From contig CALURL010000006.1 of the NCBI GenBank assembly GCA_944323155.1, forward strand, positions 21,159 to 85,158: a DNA stretch of 64,000 nucleotides, written 5' to 3'. The DNA is from Candidatus Gastranaerophilales bacterium. GTDB lineage: Bacteria > Cyanobacteriota > Vampirovibrionia > Gastranaerophilales > Gastranaerophilaceae. The position numbers were made by a program, and so were the translations under genes. The notes under the pieces were generated by a model that was not told the DNA's origin, searched no databases, and saw only the letters and a list, made by a program, of their open reading frames with translations. Shown in pieces: positions 2,640-49,467 of the stretch (positions are counted from its first letter, which is position 1; each line of letters opens with the position of its first letter).

Positions 2640-2960
2640 ACAAGTTTTCATTGTACAACTGCCATTAACTAAGTTATAAAGACTTGAACAGGAATTGCAA
2701 CGGCCGGTACATTTATCGCAATTAGTACAGCCTGCACTGCAGGATTTATTACAAGCTACACAAGAGGAGCCAGACAACTGGTAACCGCTCGAACAGCTAC
2801 TACAACGACCGGTACAACGGTCACAATTGCACAACCTGCACTACAGGAGGTATTGCATAGCTGGCAACTGCTGCCGACTAACTTATAACCACTAGAACAA
2901 GAACGGCACTGACCAGTACATTTATCACAGTCGCTGCAGCCACTGCCGCAACTGCCGTGC
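2640..2960 (-). repeat. Three tandem ~105-111-nt coding repeats (furin/VSP-like Cys-rich units)
   Basis: Peptide units GSCGSGCSDCDKCTGQCRSCSSGYKLVGSSCQLCNTSCSAGC / ANCDRCTGRCSSCSSGYQLSGSSCVACNKSCSAGC / TNCDKCTGRCNSCSSLYNLVNGSC, read across the frame breaks. Confidence 0.75.
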
Positions 2961-3775
2961 AGGGTTGGCATTCTTCACCTCTATGTGCAGCACCTAAACT
3001 AACTGCTTTGTAGCCACTCGGGCAAGAACATGAACAATATGGAAAACCGCCCAGAGGGTAGCCTCCTGGATTATTAAATGTGCCACCCGAATTTTGACAT
3101 CTATTTCGATTACCTACAGAACAGTTAACAAGAGCAAACGCAGGTGGCGTAAGATTATTCATAATACCTGTCAGAAAACCACTAAACCTTTGTAGAATAC
3201 TCGCGAACTTAAAGCCGGAGACATAACCTGTTTTCATATTGCCCTTCAACTGAGGTATTTCTACATAGTCATTTTTTACATTATAAAGCTTCATGCCGTT
3301 ACGAAAAACTATATCTGGTTGTACACCCGAAAAGTCTCCTGATGCAACAGCTTGAGATATGGCTGATTTGTTGTTGCCGCTACAATTTGAAGAGACTGTA
3401 TTCACAGACTCTTCGACGGCCTCACAGAAATCATTGCCATTGGTAGGCAAAGTTACTGAGATTGATACACAATCACAAACACTTTTATCGAATGCGTAAC
3501 CATCGGGACATTGTTTTTCTGTGCTACACGTGCCTTCTTTGTGCTCGGTGTCCTGTTTCTTAATTGAATATGAATTGCCGATTAAATTCGCAGAGACACT
3601 GTTTAAGGTGTCGTAGGCGGCAAAATATGTATAAGTGACAACTTTGTCTAACTTCGTGCGGGTGATTTTTATACAAACTCCGGCGACTACAGCTATAATC
3701 AACATGACGATGATTACCTCGGACAACGTAAATCCGAACGACCGCCGAAGTCCTTGGGAGACTAAGGAATTATCG

Positions 3776-3786
3776 CCCCCCCCCCC
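3776..3786 (-). repeat. G11 homopolymer (coding strand) at codon 10 of the giant pilin-like gene; in frame
   Basis: Counted 5+6 C on the plus strand. Coding strand is ATG+27 nt+G11 = ...LLS GGGG D. With G10 the frame would hit TAG (GCG ATA ATT CCT TAG). Confidence 0.9.
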
Positions 3787-3851
3787 GCTTAACAAGCGTA
3801 AGATTCTTTTCATCTTTTTTACCTCTCTATATTCTGTGTAACTCCAATTTT

Positions 3852-6361: not shown

Positions 6362-6397
6362 AACCGCCTTGAAGAAACCTCAAGGCGGTTTAATTTT
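6362..6397. terminator. Bidirectional hairpin terminator between convergent genes
   Basis: AACCGCCTTGA-AGAAACC-TCAAGGCGGTT (11-bp stem), followed by TAATTTT and preceded by an A-rich run. Confidence 0.75.
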
Positions 6398-7159
6398 AAA
6401 ACCAAGGATAATCATCTTTTATCTGCCAGCCGTCATAGAATATCAAACCGGTACAGTAATTAGCATACTCTTTAGTAGGTTTTCCTGAGCAATAATCCAG
6501 AAGCTGAGATCTTTGTAACCCCAAACCTCCATATGGCTCTAATCCAGTTTTTTTGTATTGAAAAGTAAAGTATTTTGAGCCGCAACAAGCTTGTTGGGAA
6601 TTAACGTCCTTCTGGCAGCTATCAACATCTTTTGCGTAAGGATAAAAATACATATCAAAGACTGTTTTGGAATTGGTCGCAGCAAAACGAATTCCAAAAC
6701 CGCTTCCGTCAACAAGCTTAACCCAAACAGTATAATCATGCACCATTCTTTCAACAGAAAGAACATTCATATGCTTTCGTAAATAGGTATTGAACCACTC
6801 CTCAGTAGCTGATTCCTGAGTCAAATCCGGATCAGGCCAATTTTCAACTTCACCATATTCAACTTCTGCTAATTTTACAGCCTGTGAAAAAGTTGAATAG
6901 AATTTTTTTAACCTTGTCTCAGCAACACCTTTTTTGTGATTAGCAACCATAGAAGGAATAGTTAAGGCTGCGACAATGCCGATTATTCCTAAAGTAATTA
7001 AGACCTCTGCTAGAGTAAAGGCGGGTTTTATTTTAGATACCTTTGTTGAATTGCAAGAAATGCATTGTCTTTCAAAAAATTTTAAAGTTCCACAAACATT
7101 GGCGCAGGTATCTAGGCGCTTGCCCCCCCCCCAACTGCTCTTCTAAATCTATTTTTCAT
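6396..7159 (-). CDS. Prepilin-type N-terminal cleavage/methylation domain protein, phase-variable leader; currently out of frame at G10
   Basis: Track ORF 6396..6950 continues upstream in frame as KPA|FTLAEVLITLGIIGIVAALTIPS with no ATG/GTG/TTG. ATG at 7159 (AAGGAGG RBS) is 209 nt upstream (209 mod 3 = 2) and reads MKNRFRRAV+G10 then GCA AGC GCC TAG. One extra G fuses it in frame with no stops (checked codon by codon). C-terminus is GWQIKDDYPWF. Confidence 0.8.
7123..7132 (-). repeat. G10 homopolymer at codon 10 of pilin-like gene (off frame)
   Basis: 8+2 C counted on the plus strand. Confidence 0.9.
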
Positions 7160-7209: not shown

Positions 7210-8835
7210 TTATATTCCGCTATTTTTAAACTTTTTCTTCAATAAATTTTTGGCATAATCTATAGCTTGAATTTCTGAGAAAAACACCTTTCCCTCACCG
7301 ATTTGCGAAGTAATATTGTGTTTTTGCAACTGATTGAATATTGTATTATTTTTTATAACTAAAAGTAATTTTATATGCTGCGATTTCAACCGAAATATTA
7401 TGTCTTCTAAAGCAAAAATTGCAGAAATATCAAGTAAGTCCTCACTATCGTAATTGAGTATAAGAAACTTTGTGCCAAGCATTTCATCGAATTTTGAAAT
7501 CAATTGTGTTGCAGAGCCAAAGAAAAATTGACCGTCAATATGCGCAATACGTATTTTGTGCCTAAAATCTCTTTCAACTTCTTTTTCCAGATTCGCAATA
7601 TCGCTGTCATATACTGTTTTATGAATAATTTTTGCTTTATCAGCCACACGTTTAGCATATAACAAAGCAGCCAGAGTAATTCCCGCCCCGACAGCAAATA
7701 TGAGGTTATAAAATACAGTCAGAAAGAAAACAGTAAATAATACATATAAATCGTCCTTTGGCGCAAATTTTATAACTTTTAAGAGTTTTGTATCAATTAT
7801 GTCGTAACCAATTTTAATTAATATTGCAGCAAGAACGGTAAACGGAATTTGGCCGACAAATCCAGAAAGCTTTGACAATAAAATTAATAGAATTGCAGGC
7901 GTAACAATAGCCGCGAATTTCGTTGTAGCACCTGCATTAATCGCTGCAACACTTCTCATTGTAGCAGCAGTACCCGGAAGCGAACCTGTTATGGCGCAAA
8001 AAAGATTCCCAAGCCCTTGAGATGCCAGCAAAACTTTTGGATTATGCCTTGTTTTTGTCAATGCATCTGAAACCAAACCAGTTAACATGCTTTCAGAAGA
8101 AAGAACTATTGCAATAGTCAAAGACATTGGCAAAAACTTAACCATTTGAGAAATATCTACAGATTTAAACATTAAAGTCGGGAAAGAAAATGTTACATTA
8201 CAAATTCTATCTACCGGAAGATTTAGTTTTATTGAAATCAAAGTTCCGACAACAAGCCCAATTATCTGCGATGGAATAACTTTATTTATACTTTTCGGCG
8301 TGAAAAATACTATAATTAAAGTCATAAGCCCAAGTATAAAAGATTCAGGCTGGATAGCATGCAAATTTGCAATAAAAGAATTTATGCTCAAAACAGAGGA
8401 TGAATAAGCCTTATACCCAATAAGCGGATTAAGCTGCATCAAAATTATTACGAATCCAACACCGTTCATAAAACCGGAAATAACAGGATACGGAACATAT
8501 TTAACCATATCAGGCAAATTAGTCAAAGACGCAGCCAGCTGCAAAATCGCAGCCATTAAAATAATTGTAATAGCAGTATTAATATCATACCCTATAGCAA
8601 TCATAATACTTGCAAGTACAATGGCAACCGGCCCTGTTGCACCGGATATTAAAGGCGTTTTAGGACCTGTTATACCTGCTATAAAAGATAGAATAATAGC
8701 ACCCCAAATTCCTGCGCTTGCACCGAATCCTGTTGCAACACCAAAAGCCAGAGCCTGTGGCAAAGTTACTACAGCAGCATTCAATCCGCCAAGAATATCG
8801 CCAGAAATAGCTTTCAACCGTGAACTAATATCCAT
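7210..8835 (-). CDS. SulP family inorganic anion transporter with C-terminal STAS domain
   Basis: 541 aa. Multi-pass membrane region with typical SulP N-terminus (DILGGLNAAVVTLPQALAFGVATG) and a C-terminal STAS-like region (HIDGQFFFGSA...). Confidence 0.85.
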   Translation of the reverse strand: MDISSRLKAISGDILGGLNAAVVTLPQALAFGVATGFGASAGIWGAIILSFIAGITGPKTPLISGATGPVAIVLASIMIAIGYDINTAITIILMAAILQLAASLTNLPDMVKYVPYPVISGFMNGVGFVIILMQLNPLIGYKAYSSSVLSINSFIANLHAIQPESFILGLMTLIIVFFTPKSINKVIPSQIIGLVVGTLISIKLNLPVDRICNVTFSFPTLMFKSVDISQMVKFLPMSLTIAIVLSSESMLTGLVSDALTKTRHNPKVLLASQGLGNLFCAITGSLPGTAATMRSVAAINAGATTKFAAIVTPAILLILLSKLSGFVGQIPFTVLAAILIKIGYDIIDTKLLKVIKFAPKDDLYVLFTVFFLTVFYNLIFAVGAGITLAALLYAKRVADKAKIIHKTVYDSDIANLEKEVERDFRHKIRIAHIDGQFFFGSATQLISKFDEMLGTKFLILNYDSEDLLDISAIFALEDIIFRLKSQHIKLLLVIKNNTIFNQLQKHNITSQIGEGKVFFSEIQAIDYAKNLLKKKFKNSGI

Positions 8836-8872
8836 AAATGTATTTTATACAAAAAATATGTATTTTCAAATA

Positions 8873-9732
8873 CTAATACGGACTTTCATAATCATCAAAA
8901 GTATATTTTCTATTACAAAAGCTTTGATTACCCTTTACGCATTTTAAATAATCAAGATTTTCTTCCTGTAACACCCACGCAGAACAGCCACTGCCATTCC
9001 ACCAGCCATCTGCTCCAGTATCAGATGCAGGATTACACTGCTTGTAAGTAGAATGAGCTCCTGAACCGCCGCGGGGAATAATCCTGTTTCGTCCAACCTG
9101 AAATGTAAATGTGTCTACTCCCCAGCGATTTGGCCCTCTATTACCGTTTATATCGACATCAATATTAAAACAGTAATTATTACCTGAAAAAATGCCGCAC
9201 ATATTATCTTTTGCAGAACTAGCAGAGATTTGGTGGCCAAAACCGTAGACTATACCGTCTGCTGAAATTAAAGATGCACGGCTTCCGATTTCATCTACAT
9301 TATTATTAAGCAAATCTTTTCTCGCATCTTTTTGAAAACACTTGCCGCTATTGTTTTCATCAGGTGTACACACGCGCACATTTTTGATATATTTACTAAA
9401 CAAAATTGCGACATCATCCCAGGAATCATTTTCTAATGAAGGTAAAGACCAGTCTGATGGTTCGCCATAATCGTTCAGCATCATTGTATAGGCATTCGAT
9501 ATAGTTGAATATGCTTTTTTCAAACGAACAACTGTTTCTTTTTCCCTATGATTGGCAATTAAATTAGGCAATGTCAAAGCTGCGACAATGCCAATTATCC
9601 CTAAAGTAATTAAGACCTCTGCAAGGGTAAAGGCGGATTTTCTCGGTTTGCCAGACTCAATATAAGAGGTAAAATGGCCCTCTACGCGGCGCTTGCCCCC
9701 CCCCCGACAAGCTTTTTAAACAATCTTTTCAT
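8873..9732 (-). CDS. Prepilin-type protein, phase-variable leader; out of frame at G10; start overlaps murG stop
   Basis: ATG 9732 overlaps the murG TGA (ATGA). Reads MKRLFKKLV+G10 then GCA AGC GCC GCG TAG. G11 would give MKRLFKKLVGGGGKRRVEGHFTSYIESGKPRKSA|FTLAEVLITLGIIGIVAALTLPNLIANH..., joining track ORF 8873..9577 (155 nt offset, mod 3 = 2). Contains IDVDINGNRGPNRWGVDTFTF. Confidence 0.8.
9696..9705 (-). repeat. G10 homopolymer at codon 10 of pilin-like gene (off frame)
   Basis: 5+5 C counted on the plus strand. Confidence 0.9.
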
Positions 9733-10937
9733 AACTTTAAATCTCCTTCTTTTACATTCTTTGCATTTTTATCATAACAGAGTTTTCCTGTTCCTGCAAT
9801 AGATTTCAATTGTGCAACTATTTTATCTGTACTATCAAATTTTGCAAGAGATAACGAATTAGCCTGAATTTCTTTCAAGCGTTCTTGTGAATTTATAAGA
9901 GTTTTTAACATATCTAAAAGGCACTGAGGACTAATTTCACTATCTTCTATATAAAGTCCAGCACTTTTTTCTAACATATATTTTGCATTCTTACGCTGAT
10001 GATCAGCTGCAGCATGAGGATATGGAACAAATATTGAAGCAATTCCACAAGCACAAATTTCTGAAATACTCAAAGAGCCTGAACGCGAAACAGCAATATC
10101 ACTAGCTTTCAAAACAGTAACCATATCTTCAAAATAAGGTTTTATTATGATGTTTCTATCACTCTCATAAGACGGATAAAGAGTTAAAAGCTGTTCAATA
10201 ACATATTCAAAATTTTTCTTGCCTGTTTGAAATATTATCTGAACATTATAATCAAGAGATAGAGTTTTTAATATTTCTACAGCAGAGTCATTAATTGAAC
10301 GAGCCCCCTGAGAACCACCCATAACACATAAAGTCAGCTTATTTTCTAAGCCGAGTAACCTTCTAGCCTCTGCTTTTGTTAAAGTTTTAAACCTTTCTCT
10401 AATTGGATTTCCATTAATTACACAATTTTTGTTCTTTATGAATTTTGCAGCACTTTCAAATGCAAGTGAAACATATTTTGCGTTGTCCGAAATATTCCGT
10501 GTTACCAGCCCTGGCTGCGCATCGCAATCATGCATCATATATGGAATTGATTTGATATTTAGTTTAAGAAGGGTATTACAAGCGAATAATATAGGTGCTG
10601 ATACGTAACCGCCAGTTCCAAAGACTGCATCAGGCTTATATTTTAACAAATATCCACAGCATTTTAACCAAGAATAACCTAATTGAAAAGCCCATCTTAT
10701 TAAGTCAAAACTAATTTTTCTAGGCATTCCATGAATATCAACAGGCAGAAATTTGTAACCTTTTTGCTTAACTACATCATATTCCAAATTCTTTGGATTA
10801 CCTATATAATATAATTCTTTAGTACTTTCATCGCTTAATAAAGCATCAGCAACCGCAACTGCAGGATAAATATGTCCGCCGGTTCCTCCGCCTGTTATAA
10901 AATATGTATATTTTTTCTCTGCTGATGACTTAGACAT
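9729..10937 (-). CDS. murG: UDP-N-acetylglucosamine--N-acetylmuramyl-(pentapeptide) pyrophosphoryl-undecaprenol GlcNAc transferase
   Basis: GGGTGGHIYPAVAVA N-terminal motif, GT28 layout, position in the dcw cluster. Confidence 0.9.
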   Translation of the reverse strand: MSKSSAEKKYTYFITGGGTGGHIYPAVAVADALLSDESTKELYYIGNPKNLEYDVVKQKGYKFLPVDIHGMPRKISFDLIRWAFQLGYSWLKCCGYLLKYKPDAVFGTGGYVSAPILFACNTLLKLNIKSIPYMMHDCDAQPGLVTRNISDNAKYVSLAFESAAKFIKNKNCVINGNPIRERFKTLTKAEARRLLGLENKLTLCVMGGSQGARSINDSAVEILKTLSLDYNVQIIFQTGKKNFEYVIEQLLTLYPSYESDRNIIIKPYFEDMVTVLKASDIAVSRSGSLSISEICACGIASIFVPYPHAAADHQRKNAKYMLEKSAGLYIEDSEISPQCLLDMLKTLINSQERLKEIQANSLSLAKFDSTDKIVAQLKSIAGTGKLCYDKNAKNVKEGDLKL

Positions 10938-21595: not shown

Positions 21596-22449
21596 TTAAT
21601 AATTCATTTCCCAGTTGTCATTTAGAATTTTTCCGAAACATCCATCGCCAAGAGGTGATTTTTGACAAAATGATTCAAATCTTTTTTCACGGTTTTCAGA
21701 GATACAATTAGAGGAATTGTCACTACATGTGTTAATTTCTTTATACTCATCAATTGAACCATCTTGATAAAATCTAGCGATAAACATATCTCTTCCACCG
21801 ATATTAGGGCCATTAACTCCGTTAACGTCAATAGTAATCAACCCGCCGTAAAAATTTTCGCTTGTTTCATATACAGCAATAGGAGATACACAAATAGAAG
21901 CGCCACTTGCTATAACAAAACATTTTACACCATCTGAAGTCTCAACATTCGTACTAAAAGTCTTAGTCCCATCAATAGATCTGTATTCATCTGCAAAACA
22001 AGGTCTATATTTGGTACCACAATCATTTACTATTTTAAAATACTGAGTCATAAAATCAGTTGTTTTATCCGAAGATGACAAACCTGCTTCTACTAAGTTT
22101 ATTGCGTTATGATCAGTTTGATATCTTACAAAAGCCTGACTAAATTCACTATAAACTTTATGTAATTGAGTTACATAAGTTTTTCTCTGATGATTTTGCA
22201 TTAAAGTTGGAACAGTCATGGCAGAAACTACACCAATAATTCCTAAAGTTACCAGAACTTCCGCTAGAGTAAATGCACATTTCTTTTTAAAAACTCTTGT
22301 TGGGCTGAAGATAGTATAGACCTTCTCCCCCAAATTGACGATTTGGTATAGATCTAAATTGTTTTTTGAGCAAACATTATCAGCTGCATCACCGTGTGCA
22401 ACTAAGCCTTTGCCCCCCCCCCAACTGTTTCTCTAAATAAATTTTGCAT
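21596..22449 (-). CDS. Prepilin-type protein, phase-variable leader; out of frame at G10
   Basis: ATG 22449 (AAGGAGG RBS, 12 nt after the radical-SAM stop) reads MQNLFRETV+G10 then GCA AAG GCT TAG. G11 would give a 59-aa leader ending ..KKKCA|FTLAEVLVTLGIIGVVSAMTVPTL, joining ORF 21596..22333 (116 nt offset, mod 3 = 2). Contains DVNGVNGPNIGGRDMF and the C-terminus GCFGKILNDNWEMNY. Confidence 0.8.
22413..22422 (-). repeat. G10 homopolymer at codon 10 of pilin-like gene (off frame)
   Basis: 8+2 C counted on the plus strand. Confidence 0.9.
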
Positions 22450-22461
22450 AATACCTCCTTT

Positions 22462-23883
22462 TTATTTTCTTAATAATACATTCATTCCCGCAAAAAAATA
22501 ACTCTTAACTTCTGCAAAAGAACGAATTCTTGATAACATCTTCAATATATAAAAAGGTCTTAAATAAAACCGTCTTATTGCCGATTTATGAAGTTCAAAT
22601 ATTCTATCCTTGCTCAGATAATGCGTATTAACAGCCGGATAATAATATGCATTTGCAAAAGAAGTATCTTTATCAAAAAGATTATGTTCTCTGGCATAGC
22701 TATAAAAAGTAGAACCAGGCAAAGGCGTCGCAGTATAGAAACTGATAAAATCACTATCAAGTTCTATTGCAAATCTGATTGTGTCCTCAACTGTCTCTTC
22801 GCTTTCCCAAGGAAGCCCTATTACAAAGTAGTTGTAAATTCTAATCTTTGCCTTTTTAAAGATTTTAACAGTATTTCTAATATCATCCAGTGTAATTTTT
22901 TTGCCCATTTTATCAAGCATATATTGAGAACCGCTTTCAACGCCAATACTTACCAAGCGGCAGCCTGATTCATACATTTTTTGAGCCATTTCTAAGTCAG
23001 CAGTATCAGCGCGGGTATTAGCAGACCAGGTAATCTTTAAACCAGAATCAATTATAGCCTGACATAATTCAAATACCCATTTTCTATCCAGGTTAAAAAT
23101 ATCAGACCAGAATAAAAAATTTGTAATATTATATTTTTCCACACATTCTTTAATTTCTTCAAGAATATTTTGAACGCTTCTGCGTCTGACTTTTGCACCT
23201 GAAACCGGTGTTGCGAGACAAAAGAAACAGTGAAAAGGACATCCTCTTGAAACTTTAATTGTAGCCTGAACTTTGTTATTATCAGGACGCCTGTAAATTG
23301 AATTATCAACAAGATGACGTGCTGGAAAAGGTATAGAATCCAAATCTTCAATAAAAGGTCTTTGGCCGGTAAATTTAATCAATAAATCATCACGGTAATA
23401 AATACCTAAAACTTTCGGCATTGATTTTCCTTCAAGAATTTCTCTCAAAGTTTCCTCAGCTTCACCGAGAATTCCAATATCCAAATCTTTATGTTCTTCT
23501 AAAATTGCTAAGCCAAAAGTTAAAAATGCAGCTCCTTTAGCTATAGTTTTAATATTAGGACAAATTTGCTTTGCTATTTTAACAGCATCCAAATCATGTT
23601 CCAAAGTCGGAGTAGCAATATTTATCAACAAATAATCAGGTTTAAACTCTTTCAAATCTTTTTCATAGTCGCCGCCCTGGCTGTAATCCATAATTTTAGC
23701 TTCTAATCCTGTTTTTTCGGCAACTGCAGCTAAATACATTAAATCAGTAGGAGGCAAAGGAGGAATAACCAGCAATTCTTTTGTTGGCTGCTGGCATCTG
23801 TCTTCCCTGTTCAAAACCGGAGAAGGAGGGTATATCAATAATATTCTTTTTTTTGAAATATTCTCACTATTCTTATCTTCCAT
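22462..23883 (-). CDS. B12-binding domain-containing radical SAM protein
   Basis: N-terminal cobalamin-binding-like domain, CPFHCFFC (CxxxCxxC) cluster motif, 473 aa. Confidence 0.8.
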   Translation of the reverse strand: MEDKNSENISKKRILLIYPPSPVLNREDRCQQPTKELLVIPPLPPTDLMYLAAVAEKTGLEAKIMDYSQGGDYEKDLKEFKPDYLLINIATPTLEHDLDAVKIAKQICPNIKTIAKGAAFLTFGLAILEEHKDLDIGILGEAEETLREILEGKSMPKVLGIYYRDDLLIKFTGQRPFIEDLDSIPFPARHLVDNSIYRRPDNNKVQATIKVSRGCPFHCFFCLATPVSGAKVRRRSVQNILEEIKECVEKYNITNFLFWSDIFNLDRKWVFELCQAIIDSGLKITWSANTRADTADLEMAQKMYESGCRLVSIGVESGSQYMLDKMGKKITLDDIRNTVKIFKKAKIRIYNYFVIGLPWESEETVEDTIRFAIELDSDFISFYTATPLPGSTFYSYAREHNLFDKDTSFANAYYYPAVNTHYLSKDRIFELHKSAIRRFYLRPFYILKMLSRIRSFAEVKSYFFAGMNVLLRK

Positions 23884-28315: not shown

Positions 28316-29314
28316 ATGACACTATTTATAACACTTGTAGCATTCGTTTTTATAATAGGGCTTTGTATAGGAAGTTTTTTAAATGTTGTCATACTCAGAA
28401 CCCTATCTGAAGAATCAATTGTTTTTCCAGCGTCAAAATGTCCAAAATGCCAGCATCCGTTAAAATGGTGGCATAATATACCTTTAATATCTTATATTTG
28501 CCTTAAAGGCAAATGTGCTTTTTGTAAAGAACCAATCAGCATACAATATCCTATTGTGGAACTTTTAACAGGAATCATATTCACATTAATATTTTTAAAA
28601 TTCGGCATTTCTGTTGATACAATTGTGGGCTGGATTATTGCAAGTTTACTTATTATTATTGCAGGGACTGATTTTAAAGAAAAAGTTGTTTATGATATTC
28701 ACACACTTTCACTTGTTGGTGTAGGTCTTTTATACGCTGCAATAGTTACAGCTTATGGATTATTTGTTATGCACAATGCAACTGGAGAAATCACATTTAG
28801 CAAAGATTTACTTCTAAACAATCCTTTCACAAACTCAGTTCTTGGCATAATTGCAGGTATTGTTATTATGGAAGTATTTGCGAGATTTGGCTACCTTGTT
28901 CAAAGAGGTGTTAGAATGTTTGAAGTCGGCGATACTTATATTGCTGCAGGTTTGGGAGCATTTCTTGGCTGGAGAACACTAATTATTGCTCTTATATTAT
29001 CAGTTATATTGCAAGTTATATATTTTCTGCCGCTATTTATCAAAGATTTATTTTGTAAAAAAGAATGGAAAACGCTTATTCCATTTGTACTATTTGTAAT
29101 TTATGCCATAACATTTTTCTCACTAGAACATTATGGAATTATAGATATTTCAAACTTTGCATTATACAGTGCATTAACACTATTGCTTGCAGGTCTTGGA
29201 ATTTATACATGTTATAGAATATTTAAAGGTCTAAGAGAAAATCCATCATCTGCAACATGTTTACCGTTCGGACCGGCAATGGTTGTTGCCGCGCTAATTT
29301 TGTTAATTTTATAA
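28316..29314 (+). CDS. pilD: Prepilin peptidase (A24 family, PilD-like)
   Basis: Zn-finger-like CPKCQHPL...CAFCKEPIS, QYPIVELLTG, GTDFKEKVVYD and VGDTYIAAGLGAFLGW aspartyl motifs, multi-pass membrane. Confidence 0.85.
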   Translation: MTLFITLVAFVFIIGLCIGSFLNVVILRTLSEESIVFPASKCPKCQHPLKWWHNIPLISYICLKGKCAFCKEPISIQYPIVELLTGIIFTLIFLKFGISVDTIVGWIIASLLIIIAGTDFKEKVVYDIHTLSLVGVGLLYAAIVTAYGLFVMHNATGEITFSKDLLLNNPFTNSVLGIIAGIVIMEVFARFGYLVQRGVRMFEVGDTYIAAGLGAFLGWRTLIIALILSVILQVIYFLPLFIKDLFCKKEWKTLIPFVLFVIYAITFFSLEHYGIIDISNFALYSALTLLLAGLGIYTCYRIFKGLRENPSSATCLPFGPAMVVAALILLIL

Positions 29315-29333
29315 AATAAAAGGAGGCTTAATT

Positions 29334-29390
29334 ATGTTATTCAAAAATAATTCACGCGTTTGCCCCCCCCCCGACAAGCTAATAAAATAA
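29334..29390 (+). other. Inverted copy of the pilin leader/homopolymer module; reads as an 18-codon mini-ORF on the plus strand
   Basis: AGGAGG 29321-29326, then ATG 29334 ... CGCGTTTG-C10-GACAAGCT. This is the reverse complement of AGCTTGTC-G10-CAAGCGC seen at 9690-9715. Plus-strand ORF is MLFKNNSRVCPPPDKLIK*. Flanked by direct repeats ATAAAATAAA(A)GG at 29311 and 29382. Confidence 0.6.
29363..29372 (+). repeat. C10 homopolymer (tract inverted relative to the adjacent pilin-like gene)
   Basis: 8+2 C counted on the plus strand. Confidence 0.9.
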
Positions 29391-29417
29391 AGGTTTTTGG
29401 GGATATCTATAAAAATA

Positions 29418-29446
29418 TTGACAATTTTAAGAATATACTTCATAAT
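29418..29446 (+). promoter_or_regulatory. Candidate promoter TTGACA-N17-CATAAT upstream of pilin-like gene 5
   Basis: TTGACA 29418-29423, 17-nt spacer, CATAAT 29441-29446. Confidence 0.5.
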
Positions 29447-29471
29447 AGTGATGTGTTACATCTCAAATTAA

Positions 29472-30166
29472 AAAAATAAATTATATATTGAGGAAGATAA
29501 GATTATATCCAAACTTGCTTTCACATTAGCTGAAGTTTTAATTACGCTCGGAATTATAGGGATAGTTGCAGCGTTAACTTTACCGTCAGTTATTACTAAA
29601 TATCAAAAAAAGAGGCGGCCACAAGACTTGAACATGCTTATGCAGTTGTATATCAAGCCATAAAGATGTCAGAAGCAGTTAACGGGCCTATGGAAGACTG
29701 GCAAATCGAAGGTATAAATGATTTAAGCTACGCTGAAATTACTAAAAATTTTGTTGAAAGGTATATAACACCATACCTTACAACTGTCAATAAAAAACAA
29801 TTACCTTCATCTGGTATGCCTTATGACTATTACTATAGAGAAAACGGAAAGCTTGTTAATGCCGGCGGGCATACATATTATAGTATTGCGTTGAATAATG
29901 GAACTTATTTGCATTTTAATGCAGACTACGGACAATCCAATCCAATAAGCTTAAGAATTGATATAAACGGAGAAAAGAAACCTAATATTGCAGGAAGAGA
30001 TACATTTCATCTCTACTTTTTCCCGAAATTTGAATTTGAGGGTAGCAATTTAACAAGAACACAGCTGATAAATGGGTGTAAAAATGGAGTTAATTATGGT
30101 TCTGTACACTGCGGACGAATAATTCAAATGGATGGATGGCAGATAAAAGACGATTACCCTTGGTAG
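29472..30166 (+). pseudogene. Prepilin-type gene lacking a canonical start and frameshifted in an A7 run
   Basis: Open frame from 29472 reads KNKLYIEEDKIISKLA|FTLAEVLITLGIIGIVAALTLPSVITKYQKK with no ATG/GTG/TTG (GAGGAAG RBS-like, then in-frame ATT 29502). The frame is lost at A7 (29605-29611). An A8 would continue EAATRLEHAYAVVYQAIKMSEAVNG into track ORF 29666..30166. Contains LRIDINGEKKPNIAGRDTFHLYF and the C-terminus GWQIKDDYPW. Confidence 0.75.
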
Positions 30167-30175
30167 CCCCTCCCT

Positions 30176-30799
30176 CTACAATGAAAGTATTCGCAAACTT
30201 TCTTTCAAAATATCTTCAGCAGACGCATTATCCGACAAAACAGAGACGGCTTTTGATAATGCGTTTTGTATTTCCTTGCGTTCATAACCCAGTGAAACAA
30301 GAACCATTTGAGCATCTTCAATAGCCTGATTATCCTGTTTTACCTCTGATATAGAAGTTATTTTTATCGGCTCTTTTGTTTGATAATTCATTAATTTATC
30401 TTTCAATTCCAATATAATTTTTTGAGCGAGTTTTGGTCCAACACCTTTAGCTCTGGTTAATTCTTTGTAATTACCTTCAATAACAAAGCCGATAAGTTCT
30501 GATGTTTCAAATTCATCAAGCAGAGTTAAAGCCATTTTTGCCCCGACTCCAGAAACTGAAATCAGGATATTAAATATATCTCTTGCTTCTTTATGCAAAA
30601 ATCCGCACAATGACATTTTATCTTCCCTATGCAAAAGAACAGTATAAATTTTGCCTTCTTGCCCCGGTTCAGGAGCAGAGTTAAAGTCTCTCAATGTTAC
30701 CTCAAGCAGATACCCGATTCCAAAAGTCTCTACGGTAACGTATGTTCCCTTTGAAGTATTTGATTTATTAGTAAAAATACCTTTTATATAATCGTACAT
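30176..30799 (-). CDS. ruvA: Holliday junction branch migration complex subunit RuvA
   Basis: MYDYIKGIF... N-terminus, two HhH motifs (VSGVGAKMAL, AKGVGPKLAQKI), C-terminal domain III. Confidence 0.88.
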   Translation of the reverse strand: MYDYIKGIFTNKSNTSKGTYVTVETFGIGYLLEVTLRDFNSAPEPGQEGKIYTVLLHREDKMSLCGFLHKEARDIFNILISVSGVGAKMALTLLDEFETSELIGFVIEGNYKELTRAKGVGPKLAQKIILELKDKLMNYQTKEPIKITSISEVKQDNQAIEDAQMVLVSLGYERKEIQNALSKAVSVLSDNASAEDILKESLRILSL

Positions 30800-32196
30800 T
30801 AACTCTCCTTTAAAGAACTTCTGATTTCTGCTACAGCACGGTCAAGCTCTTTATTCACACGTAATTCATCCTTAATTTTTTCATAAGAATAAAGCATTGT
30901 TGTGTGTTTTTTATTGAAATATTCTGCAATACATTCAAAACTTTTTTGTGTAAGTTCACGTGCGAGATAAACAGCAACATGACGTGCTGACGAAACCCTT
31001 TGATTTCTGGAAGAACTCAAAAAATCAGCTATAGAAACGCCATAGTGTTCACCTACTGCTTTTGCGACTTTATCAATTGTCAATGCTTTTTTAGAAGCCT
31101 CACAGTTAAGAACTTTTTTTGCAAATTCCAGCGTAATATCTGTATTTTCAATATCTGCGTAAGCACTGACTTTATTAAACGCACCTTCAAGCTCTCTTAC
31201 ATTATTTACAAAATTATTTGCGATATATTCAAACACAGGAAAATCAATTTTCAAACCGGCCTGCTCTGCAAGATTACTCAAAATAGCGACCCTTGTTTCA
31301 AAATCAGGCGGTGTAATATCAACAACAAGTCCCATTTCAAAACGGGTTCTTAACCTGTCTGGAAGAGTCGGAATATCTTTTGGCAGCCTGTCTGATGTTA
31401 TAACAATCTGTTTATTATTGTTGTGCAAACTGTCAAATGTATGGAAAATTTCCTCCATTGTATAAGTTTTACTTTCCAAAAATTGAATATCATCAATTAA
31501 TAAAACATCAACATTTCTATACTTTTGACGGAACTTATCCATTCTGGAATTTCTTTCTCCGCCATGCTGGAGATTTTTAATTAATTCATTAACATACTCT
31601 TCTGTTTTGATATATTTTACACGGAGTTTCGGCTTATTAAAAATAATATAATGGCCGATTGCCTGCATAAGGTGAGTTTTGCCAAGCCCTGAAGCGCCGT
31701 AAATAAAGAGCGGATTATATTTTTTTGCCGGATTTTGAGCAACAGTAAGCGCTGCTGCATGAGCAAAACGGCTATTTTCACCTACAACAAAATTTGAAAA
31801 TTTATATTTTAAATTCAAATTTGCAGATGACTGCATTTGAGCAAGATTGTCAACCATAGAAGAATCATCCGTATCAACTGTAAGAGAGCGTTTTTGTTTT
31901 GCAAACTCCTTTTTCTTCTCTTTTTGATATTTATCAGCAAGTTCAGCATCAAAAGTAATATGATAGCTTACGTCTTTGCCTAATACTTTTTTAAAGGCAT
32001 CAGTAATTTGTTTATTGTAATTGGATTTAACCACCTGTGGCGCAAGAGAATGAACTGTATAAACAGAAAAAACATTTCCGTCATAATCAGCGGCTTCCAA
32101 AGGTTCAAGCCACATTTGATATGCAGGTGTAGGAACTGTATCCCTTAATTCAGCCTTAACTTCACTCCAAAGATTTTTTACTTCCTGTGTTTCCAT
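30799..32196 (-). CDS. dnaA: Chromosomal replication initiator protein DnaA
   Basis: AAA+ Walker A GASGLGKTHL, LLIDDIQF, C-terminal DnaA signature (RNQRVSSARHVAVYLAREL). Stop overlaps the ruvA ATG (TAATG). Confidence 0.93.
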   Translation of the reverse strand: METQEVKNLWSEVKAELRDTVPTPAYQMWLEPLEAADYDGNVFSVYTVHSLAPQVVKSNYNKQITDAFKKVLGKDVSYHITFDAELADKYQKEKKKEFAKQKRSLTVDTDDSSMVDNLAQMQSSANLNLKYKFSNFVVGENSRFAHAAALTVAQNPAKKYNPLFIYGASGLGKTHLMQAIGHYIIFNKPKLRVKYIKTEEYVNELIKNLQHGGERNSRMDKFRQKYRNVDVLLIDDIQFLESKTYTMEEIFHTFDSLHNNNKQIVITSDRLPKDIPTLPDRLRTRFEMGLVVDITPPDFETRVAILSNLAEQAGLKIDFPVFEYIANNFVNNVRELEGAFNKVSAYADIENTDITLEFAKKVLNCEASKKALTIDKVAKAVGEHYGVSIADFLSSSRNQRVSSARHVAVYLARELTQKSFECIAEYFNKKHTTMLYSYEKIKDELRVNKELDRAVAEIRSSLKES

Positions 32197-39413: not shown

Positions 39414-40123
39414 CTAATAATTCATTTCCCAGTTGTCATTTAATATCTTTCCAAAACAACCTGTCCAATAGCTAGGACTCAGGCAATAATCATTATATGC
39501 TTTTTCGCGCTCATCACGTGTTCCCGGGGCAGAAACAACATGATAATCATCAACCATTCCATTATTAAATAAAGATATGATAAAAACATCTCTACCTGCG
39601 ATATTAGGCCCTTTTGCGCCATTAATATCGACATCAAGCGTACATAGTCTGTCACCAGCACCTGTTGTATAGCCATAACCTATTGATACACCACTTGTCA
39701 GAGTTATAAAGGCTGGTCTTGATGAATAAATATTTGTTCCTGATAAGTTACGATATTCAGAATTAGGAGCAAAACACGGTACAGACTCATCCTTACAATC
39801 ACTTGCGATATTAAAATATGTCTTAAAAAAACTATCTAACGCAGCTTGAGAATTCAATCCTGCTTCCCGCATATTTACAGCATTATGATCAGTAATATAC
39901 CTTTGAGCAGCTTGTGACAATTCAGTATAAAATTTATGCAATTGCGTAACATACACTTTACGCTGATGACTTTGCATTAAAGTTGGAACGGTCATCGCAG
40001 AAACCACCCCAATAATACCCAAAGTAACCAGAACCTCTGCTAACGTAAAGCCTCTACGGCGATTGGAAAAGGAGACTAAGCCTGTGCCCCCCCCCCGTGA
40101 AGTGCTCTAATTAATTCTTTCAT
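39414..40123 (-). CDS. Prepilin-type protein, phase-variable leader; out of frame at G10
   Basis: ATG 40123 (AAGGAGAG RBS) reads MKELIRALH+G10 then GCA CAG GCT TAG. G11 would give MKELIRALHGGGGTGLVSFSNRRRG|FTLAEVLVTLGIIGVVSAMTVPTL, joining ORF 39414..40022 (101 nt offset, mod 3 = 2). Contains LDVDINGAKGPNIAGRDVF and the C-terminus GCFGKILNDNWEMNY. Confidence 0.82.
40087..40096 (-). repeat. G10 homopolymer at codon 10 of pilin-like gene (off frame)
   Basis: 4+6 C counted on the plus strand. Confidence 0.9.
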
Positions 40124-48531: not shown

Positions 48532-49467
48532 CTAATATTTAAGGGAATTTAAAATTTTTGTATTATGAAGATACTTATTATAATATCTTTTACGGCTTTT
48601 TTGAGAACCAACTTTTGAATATATGAAAAATTTTATATTATCAAACTTCAGTTTAAACATATATTTATAGATATTATATGAATTTTGCATCATAAAATCT
48701 TCATAGAAATCGGATAATCTAGCATATTTCCACCAAATATGCCTCATACTATGCATACAATCAAAACGATTCGGGTTTGCACCGACGAAATGAACAATTA
48801 TAGGATTTTCTATTTTGTCATTAATATTAAGCCAGTATTGTTCACAATAATTGTATTCTCGACCAAGATTTATTTTTCGTTCATCAATCATAATATTTAA
48901 AGTATCTTGATCAGCACATTTTATATTTTTAACATTTTTTCTAACGTAATCGACTGTTTTTTCATAAAAATGTTCTTCACGCCATAATTTTGCATTAATT
49001 AAAATAACGCCAGCATTAAAATATAGTAAGCTTTTCAGGCCTATGCCCCCCCCCCCGGGAAGCGCCACTACTGCAGCATAATTGCTGCCAAGGTCAATAT
49101 TAAACAAATTTTTAAGAGAGCTAAGAACCATTGTATCGGAATCTAAATATAGAATCTTATCAATATCATTACACAATTCTGCAATCTTTATTCTAAACCA
49201 TGTAGCCATTGTAACCCAATTTACAAGAGGAAATCCCTTAAATTCGTCGCGTTCTACTTTTACAAAACGGATATTACAATGTCTGATATTTTTTACAGAG
49301 TTTATTTTTTCTATACTAGCGTCAGACAAGCCCGAATGGATTATAACAAACTCAATTTCATCACTACTGTCAGCATTTTTCAAAACAGAAATCATTGATA
49401 CAGATGTTATACCGGCATAATTCTCATCAGGAGCATATGCAATAGTAATCTTTTCTTTTTTCAACAT
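48532..49467 (-). CDS. Glycosyltransferase family 8 protein carrying an internal in-frame G11 tract
   Basis: 311 aa. IAYAPDENYA.., YLDSDTMVL (DxD), FNAGVILINAKLWRE are GT8 blocks. The tract encodes LPGGGGIGL near codon 137-141. Confidence 0.85.
   Translation of the reverse strand: MLKKEKITIAYAPDENYAGITSVSMISVLKNADSSDEIEFVIIHSGLSDASIEKINSVKNIRHCNIRFVKVERDEFKGFPLVNWVTMATWFRIKIAELCNDIDKILYLDSDTMVLSSLKNLFNIDLGSNYAAVVALPGGGGIGLKSLLYFNAGVILINAKLWREEHFYEKTVDYVRKNVKNIKCADQDTLNIMIDERKINLGREYNYCEQYWLNINDKIENPIIVHFVGANPNRFDCMHSMRHIWWKYARLSDFYEDFMMQNSYNIYKYMFKLKFDNIKFFIYSKVGSQKSRKRYYNKYLHNTKILNSLKY
49046..49056 (-). repeat. G11 homopolymer inside the GT8 gene (in frame)
   Basis: 5+6 C counted on the plus strand, followed by GGG. 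Coding strand is CCC-G11-CAT. Confidence 0.9.

Follow-up and report, generated by a model that had tools for sequence, protein, structure and literature searches.

Downstream of the block murF-mraY-murD-ftsW-murG, at the end of the dcw cluster of a Candidatus Gastranaerophilales contig, lies a pilin-like gene (locus 2) whose leader ATG overlaps the murG stop codon and whose leader contains a run of ten G that puts the pilin out of frame. This raises two questions: whether the gene is a working, switchable pilin-like gene, and what its attachment to murG means. The gene is on the minus strand of a 64-kb stretch of the contig, all of which was analysed (the window; 34% GC). We suggest, with a probability of roughly 0.7, that locus 2 belongs to a Gastranaerophilales type IV pilin-like family (N_methyl plus DUF6613), that it is functional although OFF at present, and that it would be switched by the length of its poly-G tract. 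The original prediction for this DNA had centred on the coupling of the gene to murG.

With the tract at G10, translation from the leader ATG gives a 16-residue peptide, MKRLFKKLVGGGASAA, and then meets a stop. With G11, the frame is open to the stop codon at 8875-8873 and encodes a 286-residue prepilin, which consists of a 34-residue leader, MKRLFKKLVGGGGKRRVEGHFTSYIESGKPRKSA, ending in KSA, and a mature part, FTLAEVLITLGIIGIVAALTLP, starting with FTLAEV. Both products had been described in the original prediction and both are reproduced by our translation. No ATG, GTG or TTG is present in the pilin frame between the tract and FTLAEV, the first such codon being a TTG at 9577, which already belongs to the mature protein. 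A processable prepilin can therefore be made from only one canonical start, the upstream ATG. Because the switch is located in the coding leader, it acts on the reading frame. That switching takes place at the level of the frame had been put forward as a consequence of the coupling to murG; the first part holds, but the arrangement is found throughout the family whatever lies upstream, and coupling is not its cause.

The same module recurs within the window. Five genes, all on the minus strand, share a Shine-Dalgarno (SD) sequence, an ATG, eight further codons, a G10 or G11 tract, a linker of variable length, the motif (G/A)FT(L)xE and a hydrophobic helix, and in all sister loci AGGAG or GGAGG lies at an equal distance from the ATG. 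Every one of the four pilin loci with G10 becomes intact on addition of one G, and the single G11 copy is intact already. Read on the plus strand, the window holds seven C10 or C11 tracts, compared to about 0.003 expected from base composition (a rough estimate), and five of them occupy the equivalent position in a pilin leader; we therefore conclude that they are not there by chance. A search with MurG retrieved relatives from 67 species, whose MurG is 58-75% identical to that of the window (74-75% in the closest); almost all of them bear the label Candidatus Gastranaerophilales, Melainabacteria or non-photosynthetic 'Cyanobacteria'. In 884 kb of MurG-bearing loci from these relatives, we found 29 tracts of at least eight G, and 22 of the 29 are in a pilin-leader context, with lengths from G9 to G14.

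We describe the product as pilin-like because the G11 translation scores above the cut-offs of PF07963 (N_methyl; 24.8 bits against 21.2) and TIGR02532 (20.5 bits against 16.3), because its structural model begins with a long helix, because a profile search of PDB sequences matches the N-terminal helices, and only those, of solved pilins (e.g. Geopilin, 1e-7, and PilA, 2e-5), and because a PilD-like peptidase is encoded in the window. In the AlphaFold2 model (m8dee936008ec, window 8876-9631, minus strand; pLDDT 90.1, pTM 0.86), residues 3-55 form the helix, which is followed by beta strands and an alpha/beta head. The remainder of the protein is PF20318 (DUF6613) according to precomputed annotation, on which this assignment rests; DUF6613 was not returned by the Pfam scan made here, and the discrepancy is unexplained. 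There are more than 6,800 homologues, and those that carry a name are called 'type II secretion system protein' or 'prepilin-type N-terminal cleavage/methylation domain protein'. An alignment of 72 sequences reveals eight nearly invariant cysteines and a DINGxKxPNRWGxDTFxF motif; the family consensus at the cleavage site is A/FTLAEV (the slash marking the cut), some paralogues having Gly at position -1. The pilin-like character thus has good support for the N-terminal features. The literature that we found on the pili of Gastranaerophilales goes no further than the presence of the genes pilA, B, C, D and T (PMC5877343).

Tract length differs between samples at several of the sister loci. The comparison was made with contigs of the same species from other samples, which were collected by exact-protein look-up and have near-identical flanks (L068 and L071, as repeats of the window's own sequence, were excluded as independent evidence, and L075 and the window count as one assembly). 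Sister locus 1 is G11 (ON) in the window and L075 and is G10 (OFF) in L077 and L079, which come from two other samples. The tract inside a GT8 glycosyltransferase gene is G11 in the window and L094, or G12 with a truncated gene in L093, and at a tract adjacent to pilD five samples have C10 and a sixth has C11. The tract at 40087 is absent from this profile because the look-up with its 187-residue neighbour gave no match.

Several observations weigh against our reading of locus 2 itself. Its tract is G10 (OFF) in five of five independent canonical assemblies (the window, L070, L072, L073 and the more distant L086), and two of the sister loci are likewise always G10 (7123 in eight independent contigs and L086, 22413 in six of six samples). 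Other lengths at locus 2 are found only in two structural-variant contigs, L069 (G12 and G14) and L074 (G12), and these variants at the poly-G may reflect a genuine exchange of modules or else chimeric assembly across the homopolymer. Hypermutability is shown by the sister loci for the family and for the species, and we infer switching at locus 2 from its relatives. The residue at -1 is Ala, where Gly is canonical; Ala at this position is partly tolerated by other prepilin peptidases. Leaders of 34 residues or far longer lie, to our knowledge, outside those documented for these enzymes. Finally, a Foldseek search of the head domain against the PDB gave no significant match (best E-value 3.4), a negative that is weak because many PDB pilins lack the N-terminal half of alpha-1; the head, which is modelled with high confidence, may be an undescribed pilin head fold. 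The phase-variable gene of the original prediction survives in part: the frame is toggled by tract length in a gene that is otherwise intact, and the profile of tract lengths across samples, which had been proposed as a check, gives variation at the sister loci (G10/G11, G11/G12, C10/C11) but a constant G10 here.

We note the organisation of the two variant contigs. In L069 (5233-5325), G12 is followed by a diverged duplicate of the SD/ATG/leader module and then by G14. In L074 (2760-2882), the leader module is replaced by 111 nt, for which no match was found in any related or same-species locus compared, and a MurG open reading frame (ORF) of 448 residues continues through the G12 tract.

The constancy of G10 at locus 2, 7123 and 22413, together with the fact that the four OFF loci of the window all need one and the same shift, would suit programmed recoding. 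The tract would then be fixed, and a low, constitutive amount of pilin would be made from the dcw mRNA by a ribosomal -1 frameshift on G GGG GGG or by RNA polymerase slippage; the G run is formally a slippery site of the X XXY YYZ kind. The loci from related contigs are difficult to accommodate in such a scheme. Three of their tracts are ON, 11 need one additional nucleotide (all of them from the window's own species) and seven, from other species, need the opposite shift of -1 nt. Alleles exactly in frame occur at G9, G11 and G14, database proteins carry in-frame Gly runs in their leaders, and, as described above, the tracts of sister loci vary between samples with clean ON and OFF outcomes. 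Nor did a conserved stimulatory structure turn up downstream, though no search was aimed at one. The mixture of ON loci with both kinds of OFF locus speaks for ordinary switching by repeat length rather than for one programmed frameshift. Uniform programmed -1 frameshifting was rejected as the main model in view of the opposite shifts and the in-frame alleles, and we regard recoding at locus 2 as unlikely.

An OFF state in every canonical assembly is also what one would expect of a pilin-like gene that landed beside murG, lost its frame and became a functionless relic, and in the related L020 (7119-7300) the tract is interrupted (GTGGTGGGGGG) and out of frame; in L039, a close relative of L020, it is G10. 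Against decay, the mature frame has 252 codons open in a genome of 34% GC. The 234-residue product called from TTG 9577 (mature residues 19-252) is identical in five samples, although the leader nucleotides differ among them, and the ON frame is open in each. The leader of L086 contains a 337-nt insertion of 57-nt repeats, and here too the ON frame is open over 124 codons compared to 13 and 10 stops in the other frames. The eight cysteines and many motifs are kept across the 72 homologues. The linkers between tract and FTLAEV at 18 loci have no stop in 740 codons of the ON frame and 42 and 76 stops in the other two, a total that is biased by the choice of loci with an open linker. Taken one at a time, those with 110, 124 and 144 codons are each improbable by chance. 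The open leader frames imply that the leader is translated from the upstream ATG in ON variants. As judged from these comparisons, locus 2 does not appear to be decaying, and we consider a relic very unlikely.

Tandem repeats of about 57 nt, which translate into CATHVGTCANVRETLKI-like units, are seen in the leaders of L086 (3452-3810) and of the proteins P0002, P0003, P0008 and P0010. These units and other insertions give leaders of more than 120-140 residues that are still open in the ON frame, and the leader of the window's 7123 locus holds one repeat unit, LDTCANVCGTLKFF.

A miscalled homopolymer would offer another account, in which the tract is in truth G11 and locus 2 closes the operon as a constitutively expressed gene. 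Sequencing through long runs of G is difficult, and several of the same-species contigs have a coverage of only 3-8x according to their names (L069 about 3x). Nevertheless, G10 is the common result at three loci in independent assemblies that come from different studies and samples, and elsewhere these assemblies do distinguish G11, G12 and C11, which makes a miscall highly improbable. There is similarly little to recommend the idea that the true product is the peptide of the 16-residue mini-ORF, which would be translationally coupled to murG and would act as a leader peptide on the expression of downstream genes, with the pilin expressed otherwise. Two loci resemble such an arrangement. In L065 (7173-7400), murG is followed by a poly-G (G12) mini-ORF and then by a hairpin that resembles a terminator (TCAGCCA...TGGCTGA, T6); the pilin that comes next has its own SD, ATG and short leader (MKKA/FTLAEV), so that the tract is outside the pilin ORF; and a C10 mini-ORF beside pilD is cut off from its pilin by stops in all three frames. 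Locus 2 offers no alternative canonical start before FTLAEV, the frame from tract to pilin is open in 18 loci, and the peptide sequences of the mini-ORFs are not conserved.

Returning to repeat-length switching, we propose that the genes of this family share a switch module composed of a -10-like element, SD, ATG, about nine codons and the poly-G tract, the length of which would be altered by slipped-strand mispairing. At locus 2, G10 would stop translation after 16 codons, and G11, G8 or G14 would lead through the 34-residue leader into the prepilin. The PilD-like peptidase of the window would then cut at A/FTLAEV and the leader would be discarded, so that neither tract length nor leader sequence would be present in the mature protein. 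Pilin mRNA would be supplied by read-through from dcw, to which an internal promoter would probably contribute, with ON and OFF set solely by the reading frame. Termination-reinitiation at the ATGA may add to initiation and would not be required. The features on which this proposal draws are collected in Table 1.

Table 1. Locus 2, its murG junction, the sister loci and the neighbouring genes of the window (positions are those of the 64-kb stretch)
Feature	Position	Strand	Remarks
Poly-G tract G10 (C10 on the plus strand), frame switch	9696..9705	-	24 nt after ATG, starts at codon 10
TAG ending the 16-residue OFF product in the G10 state	9682..9684	-	Read directly
Leader-coding linker, ON frame (...KRRVEGHFTSYIESGKPRKSA), to predicted prepilin peptidase site A/F	9632..9695	-	Frame translation
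Mature pilin-like protein, 252 residues plus stop	8873..9631	-	Class III signal/alpha-1 helix, then DUF6613 globular domain with 8 conserved Cys
ATGA, leader ATG (9732-9730) overlapping murG TGA (9731-9729)	9729..9732	-	Read directly
SD sequence GAAGGAG, within the murG coding sequence	9743..9749	-	10 nt 5' of leader ATG; read directly
TGT-TATGAT, extended -10-like, candidate internal promoter	9771..9779	-	44 nt 5' of leader ATG; read directly
Species-specific MurG C-terminal tail, about residues 381-402 (...AGTGKLCYDKNAKNVKEGDLKL)	9732..9797	-	Covers -10-like site and SD
murG, 402 residues, final gene of the murF-mraY-murD-ftsW-murG block	9729..10937	-	Pfam Glyco_transf_28 and Glyco_tran_28_C, match up to residue 361
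SulP/STAS transporter, 37 nt 3' of locus 2	7210..8835	-	Pfam; promoter-like site 8869..8842 by consensus scan
Sister locus 1, G11 (3776-3786), in frame, ON	2878..3813	-	Frame translation
Sister locus, G10 (7123-7132), OFF, 50 nt after sulP	6396..7159	-	Frame translation
Sister locus, G10 (22413-22422), OFF, ATG 12 nt after the stop of a B12/radical-SAM gene	21596..22449	-	Frame translation
Sister locus, G10 (40087-40096), OFF	39414..40123	-	Frame translation
Prepilin peptidase, PilD-like, expected leader-removing enzyme	28316..29314	+	Pfam A24_N_bact 5e-35, Peptidase_A24

What does the overlap with murG signify? The ATGA reported in the original prediction is present, and Pfam identifies murF, mraY, murD, ftsW and murG upstream of locus 2 and the SulP/STAS transporter downstream. 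The murF/mraY junction has an identical 4-nt ATGA overlap, the remaining junctions of the operon measure +1, -29 and -8 nt, and the pilin gene is packed into the operon in the manner of a native member. A terminator between murG and the pilin gene had been named as an observation that would tell against the gene belonging to the operon transcript; a consensus scan detected no terminator-like site there, where there is zero intergenic DNA, and an Rfam search over the window, which returned one tRNA elsewhere, gave no structured RNA at the junction. In view of the overlap, like that of murF and mraY, and the lack of a terminator, read-through transcription from the dcw operon into the pilin gene is likely. 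Sole dependence on the operon transcript, as originally proposed, is on the other hand improbable. Of 18 independent modules, 12 have a perfect TATAAT 24-66 nt 5' of their leader ATG, compared to 5.8% of background windows, and locus 2 has its own TGT-TATGAT, the hexamer of which (position -44, inside the MurG tail) is a five-of-six version of TATAAT. Translational coupling may contribute but is not needed: the overlap of stop and start is real, and the gene has a strong SD of its own, as do its free-standing paralogues. Tight attachment to an upstream gene is not limited to murG, since it is also found at the 22413 and 7123 loci. At the 22413 locus (ATG region 22447-22464, minus strand), the radical-SAM gene upstream itself follows an MFS transporter gene, an unrelated gene pair.

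The region 3' of murG in the relatives places the overlap in context. About 13 of the 67 species carry a pilin-like gene directly after murG, ten of these with a poly-G tract (G9-G13); in the remaining species the position is taken by the folC-like gene or by something else. This gene is followed by a folC-like gene in seven murG-adjacent loci, and when the pilin is absent (L001-L003, L009), the folC-like gene comes directly after murG; from these two gene orders, we conclude that the murG/folC boundary is a recurrent site for pilin-like genes. The murG-adjacent pilins are 30-35% identical to one another, no closer than paralogues, and we have rejected their orthology. With MurG itself at 58-75% identity, the content of the site must evolve fast or be replaced. 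The possibility that the gene is absent after murG from all relatives and also in decay, raised earlier as a point that would count against it, is thus not borne out, and its ORF is maintained. Conservation of the ATGA is a different matter: the overlap is species-specific. In the other species with a murG-adjacent pilin, murG always has its own stop, followed by a spacer and usually by a TATAAT before the pilin gene, and the MurG of 17 relatives ends about 20 codons earlier, the tail being common only to the same-species contigs and L086. Since murG elsewhere ends at its own stop before a spacer and the tail here covers the SD and the -10-like site, the ATGA is best explained by a longer murG ORF, as its by-product, rather than by a regulatory arrangement that is conserved. 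At the boundary of the dcw cluster, the pilin-like gene is an accessory insertion, not a dcw gene.

We also considered the MurG tail as a relic of the 5' end of a folC-like gene. The tail sequence TAT GAT AAA AAT GCA AAG is similar to S-Y-D-E-A-V-K, with which the gene next after murG begins in L001-L003. This similarity is brief and is not convincing in a MAFFT alignment, and the location of the pilin 5' of an intact folC-like gene in relatives counts against it, leaving it as a weak suggestion only. A conserved CTTGATAAT...TTGATTTA motif precedes the start of the folC-like gene in L009, L015, L047, L059 and L065, with or without a pilin insertion, and is probably the promoter region of that gene. 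One murG-adjacent pilin (L004, 7086-7200) has an in-frame 17-residue leader without poly-G and looks constitutive.

Two further tracts of the window lie outside the five pilin leaders. The GT8 glycosyltransferase gene (48532-49467, minus strand) contains an internal G11 (49046-49056) that is in frame, and it probably represents a second class of contingency gene, with surface glycans as the target. Downstream of pilD (29320-30166, plus strand), the mini-ORF mentioned above consists of an SD, an ATG, 26 nt and C10 (29363-29372), and its C(n)-GACAAGCTAATAAAATAAAG module recurs in L081 at 431-439. It is followed by a promoter-like site, TTGACA-17-CATAAT, and then by a pilin-like gene (...ISKLAFTLAEV...), which lacks a canonical start and is frameshifted at an A7 run; the A7 is constant across samples. 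All seven tracts of at least 10 nt are C on the plus strand, including the one that serves this plus-strand mini-ORF, which amounts to a strand bias; GC skew is negative over most of the window, with no clear switch at dnaA (30799-32196).

A wider reading, which taken as a whole we put forward only tentatively and consider rather doubtful, is that gut Gastranaerophilales might vary their surface, across the lineage and in a combinatorial manner, by means of a portable cassette (-10, SD, ATG, about nine codons, poly-G). The cassette would have become fused to many DUF6613 pilin-like genes by way of long leaders that are removed by PilD and that would tolerate insertions of more than 100 codons while remaining open. 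The poly-G tract might serve as a recombination junction for the swap or duplication of modules (L069, L074, L087). With the decision on expression purely translational, cassette genes might moreover be free to settle at the 3' end of a housekeeping operon, dcw being one example.

Melainabacteria (Vampirovibrionia), gut bacteria related to cyanobacteria, have not been cultured, and next to nothing is known of how they interact with the host. If our reading is correct, a dense set of poly-G pilin genes together with a switched glycosyltransferase would amount to stochastic surface variation, as in Neisseria and Campylobacter, and would point to immune or phage pressure on these bacteria. Gene callers truncate these pilin genes or give them a wrong start, and the family is therefore under-annotated in metagenome-assembled genomes. 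The murG overlap matters less than the family pattern, which is the more valuable lead; the overlap does illustrate how an accessory switch gene can be absorbed into an essential operon when the upstream ORF lengthens.

Our literature search found no account of poly-G phase variation in Melainabacteria and no paper on DUF6613. By analogy with the systems below, the kind of mechanism would be a known one, simple-sequence-repeat phase variation. What is new is the host lineage, the location of the switch in the class III leader of the pilin itself, the great length of the disposable leaders and the stereotyped build of the cassette. Among the closest counterparts is Neisseria pilC1/pilC2, which encodes a pilus-associated protein and has a poly-G where the signal peptide is encoded; changes of frame there switch expression ON and OFF. 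The wider setting, the Neisseria phasome, is the subject of PMC5953494. In both systems, the G tract is located a few codons after the ATG, inside the cleaved N-terminal leader of a pilus-related surface protein. They differ in that the genes described here, known from sequence alone, would switch the pilin-like subunits themselves, carry class III signal peptides for PilD, form a multigene family (five in 64 kb) and belong to a Vampirovibrionia/Melainabacteria host. The Neisseria opa genes are a multigene surface family with CTCTT repeats in the region of each copy that encodes the cleaved leader; most copies are OFF and variation is combinatorial. The present family is similar in that each copy has its own repeat in a cleaved leader and most are OFF, whereas the opa repeat is pentameric, the Opa proteins are outer-membrane beta-barrels, and the opa genes are not appended to housekeeping operons.

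The poly-G loci of Campylobacter jejuni and Helicobacter and the lgt/pgtA genes of Neisseria have modal lengths near G9-G11 and glycosyltransferases as targets. The G9-G12 tracts in this low-GC genome are comparable, and the GT8 gene (G11/G12) is among the targets, but the phylum is another, the leader position is stereotyped and pilin-like targets dominate. Literature on poly-G loci of this kind includes PMC2192423 and PMC2193922. With type IV pilins and type II secretion system pseudopilins, the products share FTLxE with Glu5, a hydrophobic alpha-1 helix, model scores above the cut-offs and a PilD nearby; they depart from them in the Ala at -1, in leaders of 34 to more than 140 residues and in a DUF6613 head without a Foldseek match in the PDB. 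The operon itself follows the canonical dcw clusters in its murF-mraY-murD-ftsW-murG order and its overlapping junctions, and differs from them in that the Gastranaerophilales block ends at murG, where it is normally followed by the folC-like gene with its own promoter-like region.

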